This document shows, piece after piece, positions 3,154-58,551 of a DNA stretch of 64,000 nt. The translations under genes and the position numbers were made by a program. The notes under the pieces are model-generated. The model was not told the DNA's origin, did no database searches, and saw only the letters and a program-made list of their open reading frames with translations. Position 1 is the first letter of the stretch, and each line of letters begins with the position of its first letter. This stretch comes from an uncultured Candidatus Saccharibacteria bacterium. GTDB taxonomy: Bacteria; Patescibacteriota; Minisyncoccia; Phycocordibacterales; SW-6-46-9. The stretch lies in contig CAZHOI010000001.1 of the NCBI GenBank assembly GCA_964534365.1, positions 188,171 to 252,170 of the forward strand, read 5' to 3'.

Positions 3154-3647
3154 ATACCGAACAAAAAGGTTTTAAGTACGTCATAGACACTAATTACTTA
3201 ATAGGTTTTTCAATATGGCTACCAGTGACTTATAATGAAAATTTTTGGAATAATCTTGAAATTTTGGTAGAGAGTGGAAAAGTACTAATTTTAGACGTAG
3301 TAGCTAATGAGGTTACACGTAAAGGTGACCTAAAAACATGGTGCAAGAAGTTAAAACAAAAAAATCTTTTAACTTCAATTGAAAACACCGACAGAAATAG
3401 AGCTATTGAAATAAACAATCTTTACCCAATGATTGATGAAACCTCAGGAAATTCAGAGGTTGATACATACATAGTTGCTTTTTCTGAAAGGACTTCTCAC
3501 ACATTACTGAGTAGAGAGGCTCCAAGGAAATCAAGTAACGTTCCGTTCAAAATTCCAGATGTATGTAATAAATTAAATATCAACACAATACGGTGGCCTG
3601 AAGATTTTTATAGTATCTTCCCCGAGTTATTTAGTACGTGCAATTAG
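3150..3647 (+). CDS. DUF4411-family PIN-like predicted nuclease
   Basis: YVIDTNYLIGF...NFWNNLE...VLILDVVANEV...DLKTWCKK matches the DUF4411 pattern (IDTN...FW...V.eE...W); ATGA start/stop overlap with the upstream ImmA-fusion gene. Confidence 0.7.
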   Translation: MNTEQKGFKYVIDTNYLIGFSIWLPVTYNENFWNNLEILVESGKVLILDVVANEVTRKGDLKTWCKKLKQKNLLTSIENTDRNRAIEINNLYPMIDETSGNSEVDTYIVAFSERTSHTLLSREAPRKSSNVPFKIPDVCNKLNINTIRWPEDFYSIFPELFSTCN

Positions 3648-4150
3648 ATGCAAGCTTTAGCAATTTCACCATTTTGATAAACAAACAAATTTACTCGATT
3701 CCCACTTGGAATAGCTGACCTGGCACTATCTTTTAAAACTTGGCAATAACTATCAATGGCAACTTGGTTAGCTTGAGACATGACATAAGCTTCCACAATT
3801 ACACCATCATCGCCTTTCTTTACAATCACATTAGACCAACGACCTTCTGCCCAGCCGTCTAAATCTGCTTGTAGCTCATCGATATCAGCTTGAGTTATAG
3901 CAATAGTAGCAGGTGCAGTATTACTTACATTAGGCGGCAAATTAGTAGCTGATTGTGTGAGACTATCATCGCGAGAGTCGTTATTTGAAGCTAAGGTTAT
4001 TGATATAACAATCACTACAAAAATGAACCAAAGAATTGTTTTGATTGGATGTCTAGCAATATACGAGCGCTGACTTGAACCACAATTGGGACACTTAGTC
4101 GCTTTCTTGTTAATCTGCTCCTTACATTCTCTACATTCCTTAGTATCCAT
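3644..4150 (-). CDS. Zinc-ribbon membrane protein (N-terminal CxxC...CxxC, one TM helix, extracytoplasmic domain)
   Basis: MDTKECRECKEQINKKATKCPNCG followed by hydrophobic ILWFIFVVIVISITLA; convergent with the DUF4411 gene and sharing overlapping stop codons; the longer alternative start is at 4207. Confidence 0.5.
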   Translation of the reverse strand: MDTKECRECKEQINKKATKCPNCGSSQRSYIARHPIKTILWFIFVVIVISITLASNNDSRDDSLTQSATNLPPNVSNTAPATIAITQADIDELQADLDGWAEGRWSNVIVKKGDDGVIVEAYVMSQANQVAIDSYCQVLKDSARSAIPSGNRVNLFVYQNGEIAKACI

Positions 4151-4574
4151 AATTAAATTGTTAGTTAGTAACTGGTGTAAGGATTGTAGAAAGCACAAAA
4201 CCCGCAACCAGGTGAGCCGAAGCTCATACGACAGTTTCCCATCGCAACATTAGACACGCCCTGATTACGGGGTTTCTGTGTCTAATGATTTGCAACCATG
4301 CCGACTCTATCGAGGAGGGTTAGGTTGGTAGGTCTATTTTACACCAAAATTTGTCCACTATCCTTGGAACACACAAAAACTAGTTAGCAGGACATTAGCA
4401 GGATAAAGTCAATCTAGAGGACTATTTAAAAACACAAAACAGTAGAAGTAACAGAGAAAGTTTTTAATTTTATGTACCTATTCTTATATGGCAAAAATAA
4501 TAAATAATAGTAAAAAAACGGTAGGAAAACCATAAATACAGTTTTTAACTAAACTAACATGGTACATTTTACAT

Positions 4575-5240
4575 ATGAGTAAGAAACAGCCTTTGAGTAT
4601 TTACTTTGAGAAGCTAGTAGTGAAAAACCAATTTTTAGATGATTTGAAAGAGCTGAACAAATTTCATCAATCAAAACTCAGCCAATTTCAGTCAAATGAG
4701 TTACGGTCAATGTTTGCAGATATTGGTCGAGGTAGAGAATATTGGAGTAAAGTATTTATGATATGTTCTAAGTACGGATTAAATGTTAATCAATTCAAAA
4801 TCATAATATCTAAACTAGCCACTGAAAGTAATTATGATTACAAAGACGATTTAGCGCACATAAGCAACATTAAACTATTAGACTTACAATCTATAAAGAA
4901 AATAATAAAGAAAAAGTTCAATTACAGTAATGAAGCGACATATATTGAAAACGACTATCGGGCGTTTATCGGCCTAAGTAATAATACCACTAAAGCAGAG
5001 CTAATAGATTACATTGAAAAGAATTATCATTCTAAGATTAAACCTTTAATCAGTAATAAAAAAGTAAGCTTTAAAAATCTACAATTAGAAAGAAACAGTG
5101 AGTTAAAGAATTTTGTTTGGAAAAACCAAGATATGCCTCATAAGGAATTGGCTAAAAAAGTCAGTAAAAAGTTCAATAAGATTTGTACTCCTGGATATAT
5201 TTCAAAAATGCTTTCAAGATTAAGAAAACAACGTGATTGA
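4575..5240 (+). CDS. Hypothetical Lys-rich protein with C-terminal HTH-like segment
   Basis: 221-aa ORF; C-terminus HKELAKKVSKKFNKICTPGYISKMLSRLRK resembles an HTH; its stop overlaps the ATG of the downstream recombinase (ATGA). Confidence 0.55.
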   Translation: MSKKQPLSIYFEKLVVKNQFLDDLKELNKFHQSKLSQFQSNELRSMFADIGRGREYWSKVFMICSKYGLNVNQFKIIISKLATESNYDYKDDLAHISNIKLLDLQSIKKIIKKKFNYSNEATYIENDYRAFIGLSNNTTKAELIDYIEKNYHSKIKPLISNKKVSFKNLQLERNSELKNFVWKNQDMPHKELAKKVSKKFNKICTPGYISKMLSRLRKQRD

Positions 5241-16528: not shown

Positions 16529-16864
16529 TTATTCTTTAGAATAATTATCATTATTTTTTAAAGTTTCTCGTTTCCTTCTAGACCAATCATAACCTGAATC
16601 ACCACCCCACAATAACCAAGACACATATCCATTTGACGGATTTTCATCATCGCCAAAATTATCAGCTTCTTTGTCAACTTCATGTCGCGAGAAATACGCA
16701 TACATGTCTTTTAATTCTTCCAGGGTAAGTTCAGTTTGATTAGCAATTTTTTCGGCCATAGCCATACCCTTGTCTGTTGCTGCATCAGAGTTTTTATTTT
16801 CACGTAAATCCAAACCCTTTTGGGCATTCTGTGCCATGTCTTTTGTTGGTGTTAAATCAGTCAT
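16529..16864 (-). CDS. Hypothetical protein
   Basis: 111-aa ORF; WLLWGGDSGYDW motif. Confidence 0.45.
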   Translation of the reverse strand: MTDLTPTKDMAQNAQKGLDLRENKNSDAATDKGMAMAEKIANQTELTLEELKDMYAYFSRHEVDKEADNFGDDENPSNGYVSWLLWGGDSGYDWSRRKRETLKNNDNYSKE

Positions 16865-17677: not shown

Positions 17678-17701
17678 TAAATTCATTATCACATAAATCG
17701 C

Positions 17702-18573
17702 TTAAGTAGAAAGAAACTCTTCAACTATTTTTTTATCCTCTAGTATTTGTTCGAATTTTTTTTGATCTACAGTACTACCTTCAAACGCTAAACCTAAATT
17801 TTTGAAAGCCATTTTGAGGACGTGCCTTACCCCAGCTGGAGTAAGGTCAAATTCTTTAGCCAACATTGTAGTCGATTTTAATTTCTCAGGATCAAATGAT
17901 TGATACCTAGATCTTAATAAATTTGCAGTTCTCTCGGTTAAATCTCTATCCGACTTGTCGCTAAATTCAATTAGAAATTTATCTATAGACTCTAGCTTCA
18001 AAACTGCATCTACTTCGAGATAAATTTTTTGTTCGCTGGTAACACCATGGGTGTGTCTATAGAATTCATGAACGGTTCTGCCATTATTTTCATCTAATAT
18101 TTCATATAGACATTCAACCCACTACTAAAGTCTCGGGAAGGTATATTAACAGATTTATCATATTTTTGAATCGCTCGACTTATGGTTGCCTGAATCCACC
18201 CATACGCATAAGAATTGAGGGTATTGTCTCGTGATAGATCAAATTTTTCTATAGCTCGATTCAGTCCTATTATGCCAAAGGAGATTAAATCTGAAACAGT
18301 TAGGTTGGTAATGTCATTAATATAATTTAGAGCCACCTTATTTATAATTTTTAAATTATATTGAATTAATAAAGTCTTGGCTTCTTCATTTCCCCTTTTA
18401 TATTGGGTTATTAAAAATCCCTCTTCCTCTTTATCAAGGATTGGATGGTCTAAAGGATTATCTAAATTATCTACCGCCGCCTTTAATCGCCTGAACTTTT
18501 CATCGGATTTTTCCTGCTGATTACCGTTTTCTAGAACAGCCGCTTCGGGAGTAGTATCATCAAACGACCACAT
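17702..18573 (-). pseudogene. RNA polymerase sigma-70 family factor interrupted by a -1 frameshift near 18094-18124
   Basis: Upstream frame encodes regions 1.2-2.4 (DLISFGIIGLNRAIEKFD, YAYGWIQATISRAIQ) and stops at 18094; another frame continues GRTVHEFYRHTHGVTSEQKIYLEV (region 3) into region 4 (LTERTANLLRSRY...TMLAKEFDLTPAGVRHVLKMAFKNL); the two frames overlap over 18094-18124. Confidence 0.65.
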
Positions 18574-18602
18574 TGTATTTATTGTACCAAATAAAGTTTT
18601 AT

Positions 18603-18614
18603 TTTTTGCGCGGT
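18603..18614. repeat. 12-nt direct repeat of the tRNA-Asp 3' end (GCGCGGTCGACC); possible att scar
   Basis: Identical to 18816-18827 inside tRNA-Asp and 190 bp away. Confidence 0.4.
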
Positions 18615-18814
18615 CGACCCTTCTTCGCCAAGGCTACGAACGGGCACAGCCGGAATCTCATATAAACATATTTTTTATCCCCAAACCCCTACTTTGAAAA
18701 CCCGAGGGGCAACGCTTTGCTGCTTTCCTACTTGGGGATAAAAAGTTCGAATCCAGTCTCTAATACAAATCAAACAAAAATACCGAGCGTAAAGCTCAGT
18801 ATTTTTATTCGAAG

Positions 18815-18889
18815 CGCGGTCGACCGGATTCGAACCGGCGATCTTCTGCGTGACAGGCAGACGTGTTAACCTAGCTACACCACGACCGC
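18815..18889 (-). tRNA. tRNA-Asp (anticodon GTC)
   Basis: Minus strand GCGGTCG-TG-GTAG...TCTGC-CTGTCAC-GCAGA...CGCCG-GTTCGAATCC-GGTCGACCGC-G; anticodon loop CTGTCAC. Confidence 0.9.
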
Positions 18890-22720: not shown

Positions 22721-25129
22721 CTAATCAGTTTTTGTTTCTAGTTGTAGTTGGTATTTTTTAATTCGCTCTTTAAAAGACTCGCTGGTTAATCGAGCCTTTA
22801 ATCGCTCGGCGACAACTGGAAAAGCAAATGGTGTTAGGCGATTGGGATTAGTAATGATAGGATCCAGTCTACCTAACCGATCAAGTTCATTTTTTACTTG
22901 ATCAATTTGTAAATCGTATGTTAGCACTTCAATCCTCGCTTGCTGGATTAGAGGATGGTTTGGTTCGAACTGCACCAGTGCTTCATAAAGGGTGTCGCTG
23001 GAGCCCGCTAAATGCGAATATCGTTTGGCTTGCCAAGGAAAACCGGGAAATAATAGCCCCCCAATCCTGGCAATGGTAGCAAAACGACGCTTGGCCAGTT
23101 CCGAGAAATTTTGTGAATCTACCAAATCGGTCATCACATTCTGAATTGTTAATAATTCATTCAGTTCAGCGGGTAAGTTGACGAGTTCAGCTGACTTGGA
23201 TAGTAATTCGAAACCATAATCATTTGCAGTAAAAGAAATTGTATCAGTGCGATTTTTTAACCAACGATGGGCAATCAAAGTCGCAATTTGTTCGTTGATT
23301 ACCTGTCCGGCAAACGGATAGATAACTATATGATGACCTTCGCGAGTTTTAAAATGCTCGATTAAAAGCTGGTTTTGGTTTGGCACCCTAGATCGCTGAT
23401 TTTGAATATTTATTAAATAACCGGCCTTATCATTCTGATTAGATACCACCCTACGTAATTCATCTGCAAGATGATCAGCAATTGGTAGCCGCGAGCCAGT
23501 CCAACGGGGTATAAACCCATCACCGCTACGCGTGCGCTTAACCGTAATATCAGTATTATGCATTCTCTGCACTTGGTAGAATTTACCTCCTAATTGAAAT
23601 TTATCCCCCGGTTTTAATTTGGCCGCAAAAGCATCATCAATTGTTCCAATTCGTCGCCGGCGGTTAATAATTTGGTAAGGTTGACCACCCTCGATAGTGC
23701 CGATGTTGAATCGATGACGCATAGCATGTCGTTTCGAAGCAATCTCAAGTTTTGTACCTGATTGAACCACATGCTGAAACTGCTCGTAACGACCCAGGGT
23801 TTTACCACCTTGGGTTACAATTGCTAAAACTTGCTGCCAAAAACTTTTGTCTAGATCATGGTAATAATAGCAGTTCTGCAACTCTTTCTTTAGAACTGAT
23901 TTATCCACTGCACTGCCGCAGACTCGGGTCGAAACATATTGCGCGGCGACGTCTAGCGCATTCTCTGGCAGCTGTGCTACTGGATCCAGCCTACCTTTCT
24001 GCAGTAAATTTTTTATTGCCTGAATCTCGAGTATTTCAAGGGTAAAGGTTGGCACCACAAACACTTCTGGGGCAACACCAGGTCGATGGTTCGAACGTCC
24101 AGCCCGCTGACGAAGTCGAGTAATTGATTTAGGCGACGACACTTGAACCACTAACTCTACTGACTGAAAATCCAATCCCAAATCCAAACTAGCGGTTGCT
24201 ATTACCACTCGAGCCGTACCGTTTTTAAGCTTTTCTTCGACTGATCGGCGATGATCGATTTCTAGTGAGCCATGATGTATTAAAACATCTGCTGGAGTTA
24301 ATATTTGCTTCTTATCTAATTTAACTTTTTCTTGGAGCGCTTCAAACCAGAATTCTGCCCCCGCTCGGGTATTAACAAAAATTATACTGGATGTAGCCTG
24401 GCTGACTAATTTATAAACCCGAGGCACCATTTTTAACCCAATGTGCCCCCGCCACGAATACGCCGCAGGGGTGTCTGGTTGCAATAGCGTAATTTTTTCC
24501 TTGATCCGGGATTTTTTTGGTGGCTGAATTAATTTGTAATGAGTATCGGTGTTAAATAAAGCTTTTGCTGCTAGATCTGGGTCTGAAATTGTAGCTGATA
24601 TGCCACAAATATCTTTTAAATTAAAACTTGTTGTCAAGGCACTGATACCTAGCGAGGTCTGTACCCCACGTTTGTTAGCTAACAGACTATGCCATTCATC
24701 AACCACTACTGATTCAATCTGATTCAATAGTTTATAGGCGGTTTTCTGTGATAGTAATAAATGTAGCGATTCCGGTGTCGTTACTAATACCCGCGGCGGT
24801 TTTTGGAACATCAATTTTTTGTCCGAGGCACTGGTATCGCCGGTCCGATACATTACCTTGTCAGCTAGGTCGAGTGTTCCAATGATATTTTCCAACGATT
24901 TAGCAGTGTCAAATGCCAGCGCCTTGAGTGGTGTAATCCACAATAAAGTCGTATTGGTTTTGATTGCCTGTTCTAATAATGGCAAAAACGCCGCCAAAGT
25001 CTTGCCCTCGCCGGTAGGGGCAGCAATCAAATTATAGCGATTTTTTCCTAAAGCCTGGTAAGACCGACGCTGCAAAGCAGTTGGTTCCCAGCGTTTTCTA
25101 TCGAAAAAATTTTTAAAAAAATCCGGCAT
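22721..25129 (-). CDS. Ligase-associated DNA damage response DEXH-box helicase (Lhr-core-like)
   Basis: Walker A APTGEGKT, DEWH box, helicase C motifs (QRAGRS); ~800 aa with a large C-terminal extension. Confidence 0.85.
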   Translation of the reverse strand: MPDFFKNFFDRKRWEPTALQRRSYQALGKNRYNLIAAPTGEGKTLAAFLPLLEQAIKTNTTLLWITPLKALAFDTAKSLENIIGTLDLADKVMYRTGDTSASDKKLMFQKPPRVLVTTPESLHLLLSQKTAYKLLNQIESVVVDEWHSLLANKRGVQTSLGISALTTSFNLKDICGISATISDPDLAAKALFNTDTHYKLIQPPKKSRIKEKITLLQPDTPAAYSWRGHIGLKMVPRVYKLVSQATSSIIFVNTRAGAEFWFEALQEKVKLDKKQILTPADVLIHHGSLEIDHRRSVEEKLKNGTARVVIATASLDLGLDFQSVELVVQVSSPKSITRLRQRAGRSNHRPGVAPEVFVVPTFTLEILEIQAIKNLLQKGRLDPVAQLPENALDVAAQYVSTRVCGSAVDKSVLKKELQNCYYYHDLDKSFWQQVLAIVTQGGKTLGRYEQFQHVVQSGTKLEIASKRHAMRHRFNIGTIEGGQPYQIINRRRRIGTIDDAFAAKLKPGDKFQLGGKFYQVQRMHNTDITVKRTRSGDGFIPRWTGSRLPIADHLADELRRVVSNQNDKAGYLINIQNQRSRVPNQNQLLIEHFKTREGHHIVIYPFAGQVINEQIATLIAHRWLKNRTDTISFTANDYGFELLSKSAELVNLPAELNELLTIQNVMTDLVDSQNFSELAKRRFATIARIGGLLFPGFPWQAKRYSHLAGSSDTLYEALVQFEPNHPLIQQARIEVLTYDLQIDQVKNELDRLGRLDPIITNPNRLTPFAFPVVAERLKARLTSESFKERIKKYQLQLETKTD

Positions 25130-25131
25130 AA

Positions 25132-26775
25132 TTATTTTGATCGCAAAAGGCTATTTGCTGCTTCTAGCGTATCTGCCTCGGACACTGGTTTGTCCTGTCG
25201 CCAGCGCAAAATTCGCGGAAACCGAACCGCCAACCCAGATTTGTGCCTGGCTGAGGGGGCAATACCCTCGAAGGCAATTTCAAAAACTTGACCAACTTTT
25301 ACCGTTCGCACTGGACCGAAACGCTCGAAAGTATTTTTCTTGATCCAGTTATCGACTTTGGCAATTTCTTTATCAGTCAAGCCAGAATACGCCTTTGCCA
25401 GCGGTACTAATTGGGCTTGACCTGGTTGAGGAAAGCCATCAATCGTATCCGGAATCGGTCCCGTCGACGTGTCCCATACCCCTAAAGTGTAGTCAGTATA
25501 GAGGGTGGCACGACGACCACTGCCACGCTGGGCATACATCAACACCATATCAAGTGTATAAGGGTCGACTTTCCACTTCCACCACTTGCCTTTTTTGCGT
25601 CCCACAAAATATTCTGACCCGCGATGTTTAATCATAACTCCTTCAGCATCCATGTCGCGGGCGGTATCTTTGATCTTCGATAATTGATCCCAAGAATTAA
25701 AAGATATTTCCTGGGAAAGGATGAGATTATTATGATTGACAATAGAGACAGCTTCTTCCAATAATTTTCTGCGCTTAGTCAGACTTTGATTGCGAACGTC
25801 ATTGCTATCATATTCAAAAATATCATAGGCAATAATGCCCACTGGATTCTTCTTCATCATTGCGCCTGAAACATTTTTGCGGCCCAATCGATTTTGCAAT
25901 GAGTTAAACGGCTGGATTTTACCGTTCTCGATGACGATTAATTCACCATCAATGGCGGTTCCGTCAGGAAGACCCGTGGCAATTTCGGCAAGATCAGGAA
26001 ATTGATCGGTAATCAAATCCTCACCCCGGGACCAAATATGAACCTCGCCAGATCGTTTAATAATCTGAGATCTAATACCATCCCATTTCCACTCGGCTTG
26101 CCATTCATCCGGATGACCCAATTCAGCAAAATCACGATCCAGTTGATATGCCAATGCAAACGGATAAGGTCTGGCGGTATTAGCCTGATCGCTGAATAAA
26201 ATTTCTTCCAGTGATTCAAATTCAGCAGGCGTCCATTTACCACCTAATCTAAACTGGACCTCATCTTCGGGTAATTCGTACGTTTGAGCAATTGACCGAT
26301 ACACTAATTTTTTTGACGCCCCCACTCGAAAAGCTCCGGTTATTAGTTTGTTAAATACAAAACGCTCCAGCCTAGGTAGTGATGCCCATACTTTTAATAC
26401 ATAGGCCTTCTTTTCTACAACTGATTTGTTTTTTAGATCAATTAATTCAACCGCCCATTTGCCAAGTCGTCTGTTGCGGTATTTTTTATTGGGCTCCGGT
26501 AGTATCAGCGTAATCGTTTCGGCCAGATCTGCAATCTGATTATAGCTCTCGGCAAATAACCAGTCAGGCACCGCAGCTAACTCGGCCGACCATTCTTTTA
26601 ACAGAGTACGATTTACTGGTTGCGGTAGGCGCTCGCCTGATAAAAACCAAGCCGCCCATAATTTATCATGATCCGAGACCTTTTTATTTTGGAAATAATT
26701 GTTTAAAGCCACTACTTTTTTAAGCGTTTTTGTAGTTCGATCCAGATTCTCGAATAATTTTGCCAAGTCTCTCAT
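25132..26775 (-). CDS. ATP-dependent DNA ligase (ligase-associated DNA-damage-response type)
   Basis: Adenylation motif I KWDGIR; OB-fold C-terminus; 3 bp from the helicase gene. Confidence 0.85.
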   Translation of the reverse strand: MRDLAKLFENLDRTTKTLKKVVALNNYFQNKKVSDHDKLWAAWFLSGERLPQPVNRTLLKEWSAELAAVPDWLFAESYNQIADLAETITLILPEPNKKYRNRRLGKWAVELIDLKNKSVVEKKAYVLKVWASLPRLERFVFNKLITGAFRVGASKKLVYRSIAQTYELPEDEVQFRLGGKWTPAEFESLEEILFSDQANTARPYPFALAYQLDRDFAELGHPDEWQAEWKWDGIRSQIIKRSGEVHIWSRGEDLITDQFPDLAEIATGLPDGTAIDGELIVIENGKIQPFNSLQNRLGRKNVSGAMMKKNPVGIIAYDIFEYDSNDVRNQSLTKRRKLLEEAVSIVNHNNLILSQEISFNSWDQLSKIKDTARDMDAEGVMIKHRGSEYFVGRKKGKWWKWKVDPYTLDMVLMYAQRGSGRRATLYTDYTLGVWDTSTGPIPDTIDGFPQPGQAQLVPLAKAYSGLTDKEIAKVDNWIKKNTFERFGPVRTVKVGQVFEIAFEGIAPSARHKSGLAVRFPRILRWRQDKPVSEADTLEAANSLLRSK

Positions 26776-50002: not shown

Positions 50003-50180
50003 TATTAATTGTTTTGTGTCTGACTATTAGCCAGAGCACATATTTATTGGTAATAGTAATTAGTTAACAGCATTAAAGGCACAAGCCCTTCTGAAACTAA
50101 TTACTGTTTAATCTTTTAATAAGATTTGGTAATTTGTCAGCACTTTCAGCCAACCTGTTTTTTTTGAAGTCAAGCTTCAA

Positions 50181-50489
50181 ACGCAGTGGCTGGCACCTTT
50201 GGTGCCTGTCACTTTAGTGAAGAAGCCTGTCTTTTTCCAGCCGCGCGAGGCTAGAAAGATACGGGTCGTTAAGGTAACACCGACCATAGGTCAATGTCAC
50301 CGCACTCCCCCAATCTTAATAGGTTGGCGATTCGTCGGCCAAAATCTAGTTAAAGATTAAAGCCATGGAATGACAAACCGCCAAACCAAATAGTTTTTGA
50401 CGTTTTTTCGGTATTTTGTTAACTAGCCCTGCTCGCTAAAGTGGCAGGCACCCTAGGATTTATGAATAAATCCAGATGAGCCAGCCACT
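50181..50489. repeat. Long-range imperfect inverted repeat (~37-nt arms) enclosing ~215 bp; MITE-like element or structured ncRNA
   Basis: 50181-50217 GCAGTGGCTGGCACCTTTGGTGCCTGTCACTTTAGTG is complementary to 50432-50450 plus 50478-50489; a minus-strand terminator-like hairpin and T-run lie at 50152-50178. Confidence 0.5.
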
Positions 50490-51031
50490 GCGCTCGCTAT
50501 ATAGCCAATTAAACCTTTGTCAAAGAGCTAACTGGTTTGGCGGCAGATTAATATCTGTAGCACCAACCAATTAAGGATTGGATCAATCTGATCCGGTTAG
50601 GGAGACCAATAGTTGATATTAGTCCCCCTATGCGATTCAGTTGTTTTCTTTAGTTATTTATCTTTAGTTATTTATTGGGCCTATTTTGCTGGGCCGATAC
50701 TAGTGGTGACGAGAATAGATAGATTTGATTACGTTGACAAAATTAATAATTCGTTATTTTAACTATATGATATTTTGTACAATTTGGCAAAGTTCAGGAC
50801 TTGATTAGATTAAATGCTTGATCCAATAATAGTCAGCCGAACTACCAATACCTATAGATTACCTTATCAACAGCCAAACATTAGTTAGCTGGTCTAACCC
50901 TGGGGATAATTGAGTTATTAATTCAAGGCTGATATCAAATAATAACTCAGTAATTAGGAAAAACTAGGAAATCAGGGCATTTTAGCAATATCAATAATCA
51001 AATATAGAGTTTTCTTAAAGGGATATTATTA

Positions 51032-57972: not shown

Positions 57973-58455
57973 CTATTCTTCATTTTCTTCTGTTTTTTGC
58001 TCCGTTTTTGGTTCCGTATTATCCTCGCCTTCTGATTCTTCATCGTCTGATTCGTCTTCAAACTCTTCTTCATCAGGGTTATATTCGTCAGTCAAGGTTG
58101 TAACAAAATCCTCGCGAGTGGTTTTAATAATTAAAAACCTGATAATTGATTTGTTAGCCTTGATAGTTGATTCTAAGTCGCTAATTAATTCTGGATCTTG
58201 TTTGAATTTAATCCAATTGAAATAAGCATCTTTATAATCCCGGCGTTTACCTTCAGTTTTAACGGTGATCTCATAAGCCAGATTACGCAATCTGGGTTCA
58301 CCACTAGAAAGCACCGCGCCGGATCCCTGAGCGACCGTGTCGCCCAATGAAGTGAATAGTTTGTCCACTTTGTCTTCGGAAAGCTTGGGGTCGACCAGAG
58401 TTGCTAGTTCATAGACCACCAGCTTGGAATCCTGGTTTTGGTTATTTTCTGTCAT
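57973..58455 (-). CDS. rpsF: 30S ribosomal protein S6 with acidic C-terminal tail
   Basis: S6-like core (VVYELATLVDP...RLRNLAYEI...); conserved rpsF-ssb-rpsR order; start taken at MTENN (58455) because the ORF-track start lies inside the repeat. Confidence 0.8.
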   Translation of the reverse strand: MTENNQNQDSKLVVYELATLVDPKLSEDKVDKLFTSLGDTVAQGSGAVLSSGEPRLRNLAYEITVKTEGKRRDYKDAYFNWIKFKQDPELISDLESTIKANKSIIRFLIIKTTREDFVTTLTDEYNPDEEEFEDESDDEESEGEDNTEPKTEQKTEENEE

Positions 58456-58474
58456 AACTCGCCGATTGTAACAT

Positions 58475-58551
58475 GTCATCCGTCATCCGTCATCCGTCAT
58501 CCGTCATCCGTCATCTGTCATCCGTCATCTGTCATCTGTCATCTGTCATCT
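58475..58551. repeat. Heptanucleotide tandem repeat (GTCATCC/GTCATCT) x 11
   Basis: Eleven perfect 7-mer units read directly from the sequence, between the tatD stop and the rpsF start. Confidence 0.9.

Follow-up and report, generated by a model that had tools for sequence, protein, structure and literature searches.

A gene for a sigma-70 family factor is split between two overlapping reading frames on the minus strand of the window (the whole 64,000-nucleotide stretch of DNA analysed here), and a real, recent frameshift has probably inactivated it, which would make it the young pseudogene of a divergent, lineage-specific alternative sigma factor. Homology to one family continues past the frame change, and there is no intact copy at the locus. 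The sequence-only reading had already proposed one sigma-70 family gene cut by a -1 frameshift, and the stop-codon map, the alignments to RpoS and phrog_351, and a six-frame profile scan all agree on this. The two frames, the sigma domains that they encode, and the recurrence of the same sequence across samples were observed directly.

Frame structure and domain content

The upstream half is an ATG-initiated minus-strand ORF of 159 aa (18573-18094, including its TAG stop at 18096-18094) that covers sigma regions 1.2 and 2.1-2.4 and the first residues past region 2.4. It ends in KSVNIPSRDFSSGLNVYMKY and a stop, its tail reading VNIPSRDFSSGLNVY followed by an out-of-frame MKY and the stop. In a map of stop codons, this frame has no stop from 18573 to 18097 and 15 stops from 18096 on, and the downstream frame, at -1 on the same strand, is interrupted by 20 stops upstream of 18122 and stays open from 18121 to 17705. 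The downstream frame is closed upstream by TAG TAG at 18127-18122, reads WVECLYEILDENNGRTVHEFYRHTHGVTSEQKIYLEVDAVLKLESIDKF...EEFLST through its open zone, and meets its next stop, TAA, at 17704-17702. By shuffling, the chance of 139 stop-free downstream codons is P = 5e-6. The stop-free zones of the two sigma halves share 28 nt (18121-18094), across which the upstream frame reads GGG TTG AAT GTC TAT ATG AAA TAT TAG. Both frames are open over the stretch in which the frame changes (18097-18121, minus strand), where the downstream frame reads TGG GTT GAA TGT CTA TAT GAA ATA T. No single uninterrupted frame encodes both sigma2 and sigma4: the TAG at 18096-18094 ends sigma2, and sigma4 lies at -1. 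The map bears out the -1 direction and the half-gene coordinates given by the sequence-only reading, and both peptides that it quoted are present in different minus-strand frames (IPSRDFSSGLNVYMKY, which with its stop ends the 159-aa ORF, and GRTVHEFYRHTHGVTSEQKIYLEV in the -1 frame). The overlap, which it had extended to 18124, stops at 18121.

Because of the TAG at 18096-18094, the shift must sit 5' of that stop, within 18121-18097. The A-rich stretch GAAAATAATGG (18091-18081), where the shift had first been placed, is thus impossible as its site, as it lies 3' of the stop. LNVY (encoded through 18106) still aligns to the ELNVY of RpoS, so the shift, for which TCTATATGAAATAT (18110-18097) is the probable setting, most likely lies in TAT ATG AAA TAT (18108-18097), at or just 3' of TATAT (18108-18104). 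The assembled sequence at the shift site is TCTATATGAAATATTAG. Past LNVY, EILDENNGR carries on the RpoS alignment without a gap, and the alignment over the whole junction is likewise gap-free (ELNVYLRAARELTHKLDHEP vs GLNVYYEILDENNGRTVHEF). Two fusion models of the gene are equal, a 1-nt deletion scoring 144.8 bits and a TA insertion 145.8 bits.

The 159-aa ORF, annotated by JGI as an RNA polymerase sigma subunit, matches Pfam Sigma70_r2 (PF04542; 32 bits, cutoff 24, 1e-7) and the NCBIfam RpoS, RpoD and SigK models (about 1e-20 to 1e-11), the latter well short of their equivalog cutoffs. RpoS structures match it at 1e-16, aligned through LNVY. Its score on the RpoS equivalog is only 71-76 bits against cutoffs of 379-394, and the protein is thus no RpoS orthologue. 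The core-binding and -10 recognition residues of sigma2 are present, and the invariant columns A81, G100, G103, A107, W126, I127 and P145 are common to the query and 35 sigma factors.

Sigma4 was located in the downstream half by scanning all six frames of the whole window with a profile of the 35 sigma factors. Only 2 of 536 stop-to-stop segments match this profile, and these are the two adjacent halves, collinear and on the same strand: the upstream ORF matches positions 19-123 (E 5e-38) and the downstream frame positions 218-267 (E 1.2e-6). Taken alone, the downstream frame has weak library matches and Pfam Sigma70_r4 is not detected in it, and its matches to individual sigma factors, weak but consistent, fall in the C-terminal region 4 of many of them, correctly spaced from the end of the protein. 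When the halves are joined as ...LNVY + YEILD..., the fused model of about 289-290 codons passes TIGR02937 over residues 68-260 (50.3 bits, cutoff 42.9), which neither half does alone, and its residues 38-275 align in one stretch with phrog_351, "RNA polymerase sigma factor" (4e-26). AlphaFold2, given a 36-sequence alignment, predicts the fused model with pLDDT >90 in sigma2 (residues about 20-145) and about 90 in sigma4 (residues 208-262), joined by a poorly defined connector of ~60 residues (pLDDT 43-63). Foldseek with this structure returns sigma factors exclusively, over 245-300 aligned columns. The profile match, the TIGR02937 result for the fused model and the pLDDT together place regions 4.1-4.2 C-terminal to sigma2.

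In public annotation, the downstream half is represented by a 99-aa ORF (17702-18001, minus strand, TAA included) that starts at TTG 18001 according to both JGI and NCBI and contains sigma region 4 and a C-terminal helix. Region 4 occupies about 17795-17959 (minus strand), with LTERTANLLRSRY as region 4.1 and STTMLAKEFDLTPAGVRHVLKMAFKNL as the helix-turn-helix of region 4.2. Between this ORF and the sigma2 stop lies a stranded linker segment (18002-18093, minus strand), which with the overlap makes up a 40-codon extension of the downstream frame (WVECLYEILDENNGRTVHEFYRHTHGVTSEQKIYLEVDAV). The continuation peptide had been assigned to sigma region 3.0-3.1. Its collinearity in the alignments makes this plausible, but a region 3 identity of the stranded 40 codons has no statistical support: the 35-homologue profile gives them no score, the fused model scoring no better than the two halves joined without them, and they fall in the connector of pLDDT 43-63. 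They are probably former inter-domain or residual region 3 coding sequence. Relative to its homologues, the protein is some 35-40 residues short in region 3.2.

Fate of the two halves

From these observations I infer an ancestral single ORF, the type of mutation that split it, and a loss of function. The ancestor would have been one continuous gene of about 289-290 codons for an alternative sigma-70 family factor in an uncultured, Paceibacteria/Kaiserbacteria-like member of the Patescibacteria, laid out as region 1.2, sigma2, a ~60-residue linker with region 3.2 largely gone, sigma4 and a C-terminal helix. (The closest matches of the MetRS in the window, at about 52% identity, are in Paceibacteria and Kaiserbacteria MAGs, and MetRS places the organism in the Patescibacteria.) A -1 frameshift just past region 2.4 would then have arisen, through one base lost or a TA dinucleotide gained in TCTATATGAA. 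The leaderless-type promoter would now yield a 159-aa fragment with sigma2 only, and the sigma4 part would be stranded with no adjacent start codon, promoter or stop/start coupling. The complete sigma factor would no longer be made, and the pseudogene would have become fixed in the population.

The start signals of the two halves differ. An extended -10-like element, TGgTACAAT (18581-18589, minus strand), lies 7 nt upstream of ATG 18573 and, going by its sequence, is likely the promoter of a leaderless sigma mRNA. In the window, a TAnA[AT]T box sits ahead of the start codon in 17 of 61 ORFs, its end 4-11 nt away (mode 6), against a background of 3.8%, and an SD-like motif precedes the start in 1 of 61. 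Several gene pairs are also joined by short stop/start junctions, overlapping by 4 nt or lying a few bases apart. The sigma4 frame contains no ATG, GTG or TTG for 40 codons, the first being TTG 18001, which lies 92 nt past the sigma2 stop, is not directly coupled to it, and lacks both a -10 box and an SD-like motif. This start-free extension is the longest among the 81 window ORFs with 90 aa or more (the median being 5 codons; P about 0.01-0.03), and by shuffling, 40 codons with no stop have P = 0.03 and 40 codons with neither stop nor start P = 0.003. A stretch with neither signal is what is expected of a CDS that was unbroken until recently.

As a side observation, the -10-box rule also bears on the neighbouring ROK kinase gene, which probably starts at ATG 17677 (MNKIVFDIGGT), behind TGtGATAAT (17685-17693, minus strand); the starts used otherwise are GTG 17692 and ATG 17686 (ORF list, JGI).

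Alleles with frameshift or nonsense mutations, in rpoS and in other genes for alternative sigma factors, are familiar from natural and laboratory bacterial populations. The present case would resemble the rpoS null alleles in that a dispensable alternative sigma gene was lost by a small indel and the allele became fixed in the population, and RpoS is the best-scoring characterised relative of this sigma2 half. It differs in that the protein is not orthologous to RpoS, most of its region 3.2 is gone, and no orthologue or intact allele is on record. As a young pseudogene the locus matters little; the protein is unusual, but what befell it is ordinary. Such a pseudogene would mean that a reduced CPR genome is losing, or has only just lost, an alternative sigma factor specific to its lineage. 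For annotators, it means that the public 159-aa "sigma subunit" and the 99-aa ORF, a "hypothetical protein" in the JGI and NCBI records, are halves of one gene.

The downstream 139 codons are undecayed, and neither the sigma4 signature nor the invariant sigma2 residues have been lost, so either the shift is very recent or the pieces are still used. The frameshifted allele is the sole allele seen in all samples, and the break coincides with the sigma2/linker boundary, the point at which sigma factors that naturally consist of two polypeptides are divided. I consider it quite unlikely that the gene still works, either through separately initiated sigma2 (159 aa) and sigma4 (~99 aa) proteins or through a -1 shift at a non-canonical site, but the preserved codons, the position of the break at a domain boundary and the fixation of the allele are compatible with this. 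If the halves do work, they would represent a natural sigma fission at the sigma2/sigma4 boundary, or non-canonical recoding, under leaderless, SD-independent translation.

The main rival, a functional fission in which separate polypeptides for sigma2 (159 aa) and sigma4 (~99 aa, initiated at TTG 18001 or at a non-canonical codon) act together as one sigma factor on core RNA polymerase, is unlikely. The cut at the sigma2/linker boundary, which leaves both domains intact, speaks for it, as do the prediction of both ORFs by the JGI and NCBI gene callers and the fixation of the allele in all samples. There is also a precedent for a two-polypeptide sigma in SigO-RsoA of B. subtilis, where sigma2 and sigma4 are on separate polypeptides (PMC7826278). 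The two cases are alike in that sigma2- and sigma4-type functions fall to two polypeptides of neighbouring genes, but the genes of the SigO-RsoA type have their own starts and a conserved arrangement, whereas here the sigma4 frame is start-free for 40 codons and overlaps at -1. A start-free sigma4 frame that overlaps the sigma2 ORF at -1 is the signature of a frameshift and not of two genes, and membership in the SigO-RsoA type is unsupported. An open yet start-free frame points to a recently continuous CDS, and TTG 18001 has none of the start signals listed above. A stop/start relay does join the two ORFs (TAGATG 18096-18091, TAGATG 18012-18007, TTGA 18001-17998), but such a chain is ordinary and I rejected it as evidence: when +1-frame entries into all genes of the window were scored for reaching an in-frame start, 22% of these random entries succeeded likewise. 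Finally, in the collections searched, two such genes were found in no related genome.

Candidate precedents for a split were sought among short sigma2-only proteins in the distant matches and set aside. One short sigma2-only protein (P0010) was rejected as a split precedent (not on record). On an unrelated ENA contig (L085:796-2432), a 138-aa sigma2-only ORF (P0025) immediately precedes a complete sigma gene of 406 aa and overlaps it by 1 nt, a different situation that reflects either a partial duplication or an assembly oddity.

Programmed recoding, in which some ribosomes shift by -1 (or RNA polymerase slips) in the 28-nt overlap to make a 289-290-aa sigma factor beside the 159-aa product, is very unlikely. 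Programmed -1 frameshifting is known from E. coli dnaX and from the transposases of IS elements, and the sigma gene is like these in that its frames overlap, the second lies at -1, and the fusion is collinear. Any single -1 event in 18121-18097 gives a collinear, full-length sigma factor, and the downstream frame is perfectly preserved. On my own reading of the codons, a tRNA-Lys bound to AAA (18102-18100) could slip back by one base and pair with GAA, with a G-U at the first position. Unlike the known systems, however, the upstream frame offers no X_XXY_YYZ slippery heptamer within the overlap, no significant stimulatory structure (the downstream fold of 136 nt, 18125-17990, has z = -1.15, and 25 of 200 shuffles fold as well), and no internal SD or SD-like stimulator, in a genome that hardly uses SD. 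Slippage needs an A/T run of about 7 or more, and the longest homopolymer in 18121-18094 is AAA. An Rfam scan of the locus gave no frameshift or regulatory RNA at E <= 0.1, and the collections searched yielded no orthologue that would show a conserved arrangement.

A sigma gene can also be present as two coding parts in another way, as in B. subtilis and Clostridioides, where sigK is split by the large excisable skin element and rejoined by site-specific recombination. The present gene shares with sigK only the two coding parts; here they overlap, nothing has been inserted between them, and the frame is all that separates them.

Reproducibility of the sequence and searches for orthologues

The 159-aa product was found on 8 contigs. 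Over up to 2.4 kb, the window is matched at 100% identity by the four loci retrieved, which come from four JGI metagenome samples (3300040787, 3300040789, 3300040798 and 3300040799) and lie on contigs of 187,584, 5,297, 2,279 and 1,827 bases, and the products of both ORFs are on record in NCBI and Logan assemblies. Elsewhere in the window, the genes for a P-type ATPase (915 aa), an Lhr helicase (802 aa), FtsK (749 aa) and MetRS are uninterrupted and have complete domain architectures. Identical DNA in separate assemblies, together with the NCBI and Logan products, makes an assembly error unlikely.

A sequencing or assembly artefact, in which the overlap of the true genome would be longer by one base (or shorter by two) and one intact ORF would run through it, is therefore highly improbable: single-base indels are the commonest assembly error and 100% identical contigs could share a systematic one, but the same sequence recurs in four separately assembled JGI samples on contigs of very different size, both products are also in NCBI and Logan assemblies, the site is no homopolymer, the window genes of 915, 802, 749 and 697 aa run uninterrupted through full-length Pfam architectures, and an intact allele is absent among 5.8 billion protein clusters. 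The sequence-only reading had offered three causes for the split, and of these a real mutation that left a pseudogene is favoured, an assembly indel is disfavoured, and programmed frameshifting lacks its usual signals.

Neither an intact allele nor an orthologue of the sigma gene, whether intact or split, was found by a word-indexed search of the 5.8 billion protein clusters, by a full HMMER search of 1.84 billion representatives, or by a scan of GTDB species genomes with the adjacent ROK kinase. In metagenome contigs, a scan for a validated exact pattern with a variable gap at the shift site and a protein scan likewise returned neither. The best apparent matches (P0007-P0009) were rejected as orthologues, being chimeric or duplicated sequences.

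Surroundings of the locus

The sigma gene has a GC content of 0.33-0.36 against 0.40, and other patches of the window are equally low. A mobile-element origin of the gene was considered and gained no clear support: its phage matches are generic sigma factors, and the tRNA-Asp repeat encloses only 206 nt, with the gene outside. The tRNA-Asp gene (18814-18889, minus strand) has its 3' end and trailer (18803-18825) repeated 206 nt downstream (18597-18619), in front of the sigma promoter. The two copies are 23 nt long, are 83% identical and share an exact 12-nt core, GGTCGACCGCGC, for which 0.05 matches are expected by chance, and between them, at 18745-18758, the tRNA T-arm recurs in inverted orientation. 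From its sequence, the repeat looks like an att-type scar of integration or excision, with the sigma gene just outside the segment that it bounds. Two genes downstream of the sigma gene, a 111-aa ORF (16529-16864, minus strand) matches phrog_2859, a phage family of unknown function (3.7e-17), and this is the only phage-like signal near the sigma locus.

Several other features of the window were recorded. A LOOT RNA (Rfam RF03000; 4213-4326, minus strand) scores 64.6 bits against a gathering score of 46.4 and sits in a 367-nt gap between the ORFs at 3644-4207 and 4575-5240. A GTCATCC tandem repeat of 10.9 copies (58475-58550; 95% matches) abuts and overlaps the start codon of the minus-strand ORF 57973-58479. 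Its heptanucleotide unit is not a multiple of 3, so the tract is a candidate for slipped-strand (phase-variable) change. Although the window is otherwise 88% coding, 50003-51031 is 1 kb without an ORF over 53 aa. In Rfam, this interval has only a palindromic hairpin (50576-50651) that matches a miRNA model on both strands below the gathering score, and a 14-nt tandem repeat lies at 50639-50675. Finally, at 22721-26775 (minus strand), an ATP-dependent DNA ligase (547 aa) is followed after 2 nt by the Lhr-type helicase (802 aa; DEAD, Helicase_C, WH_Lhr, DEAD_assoc), and the two look like a DNA repair gene pair.
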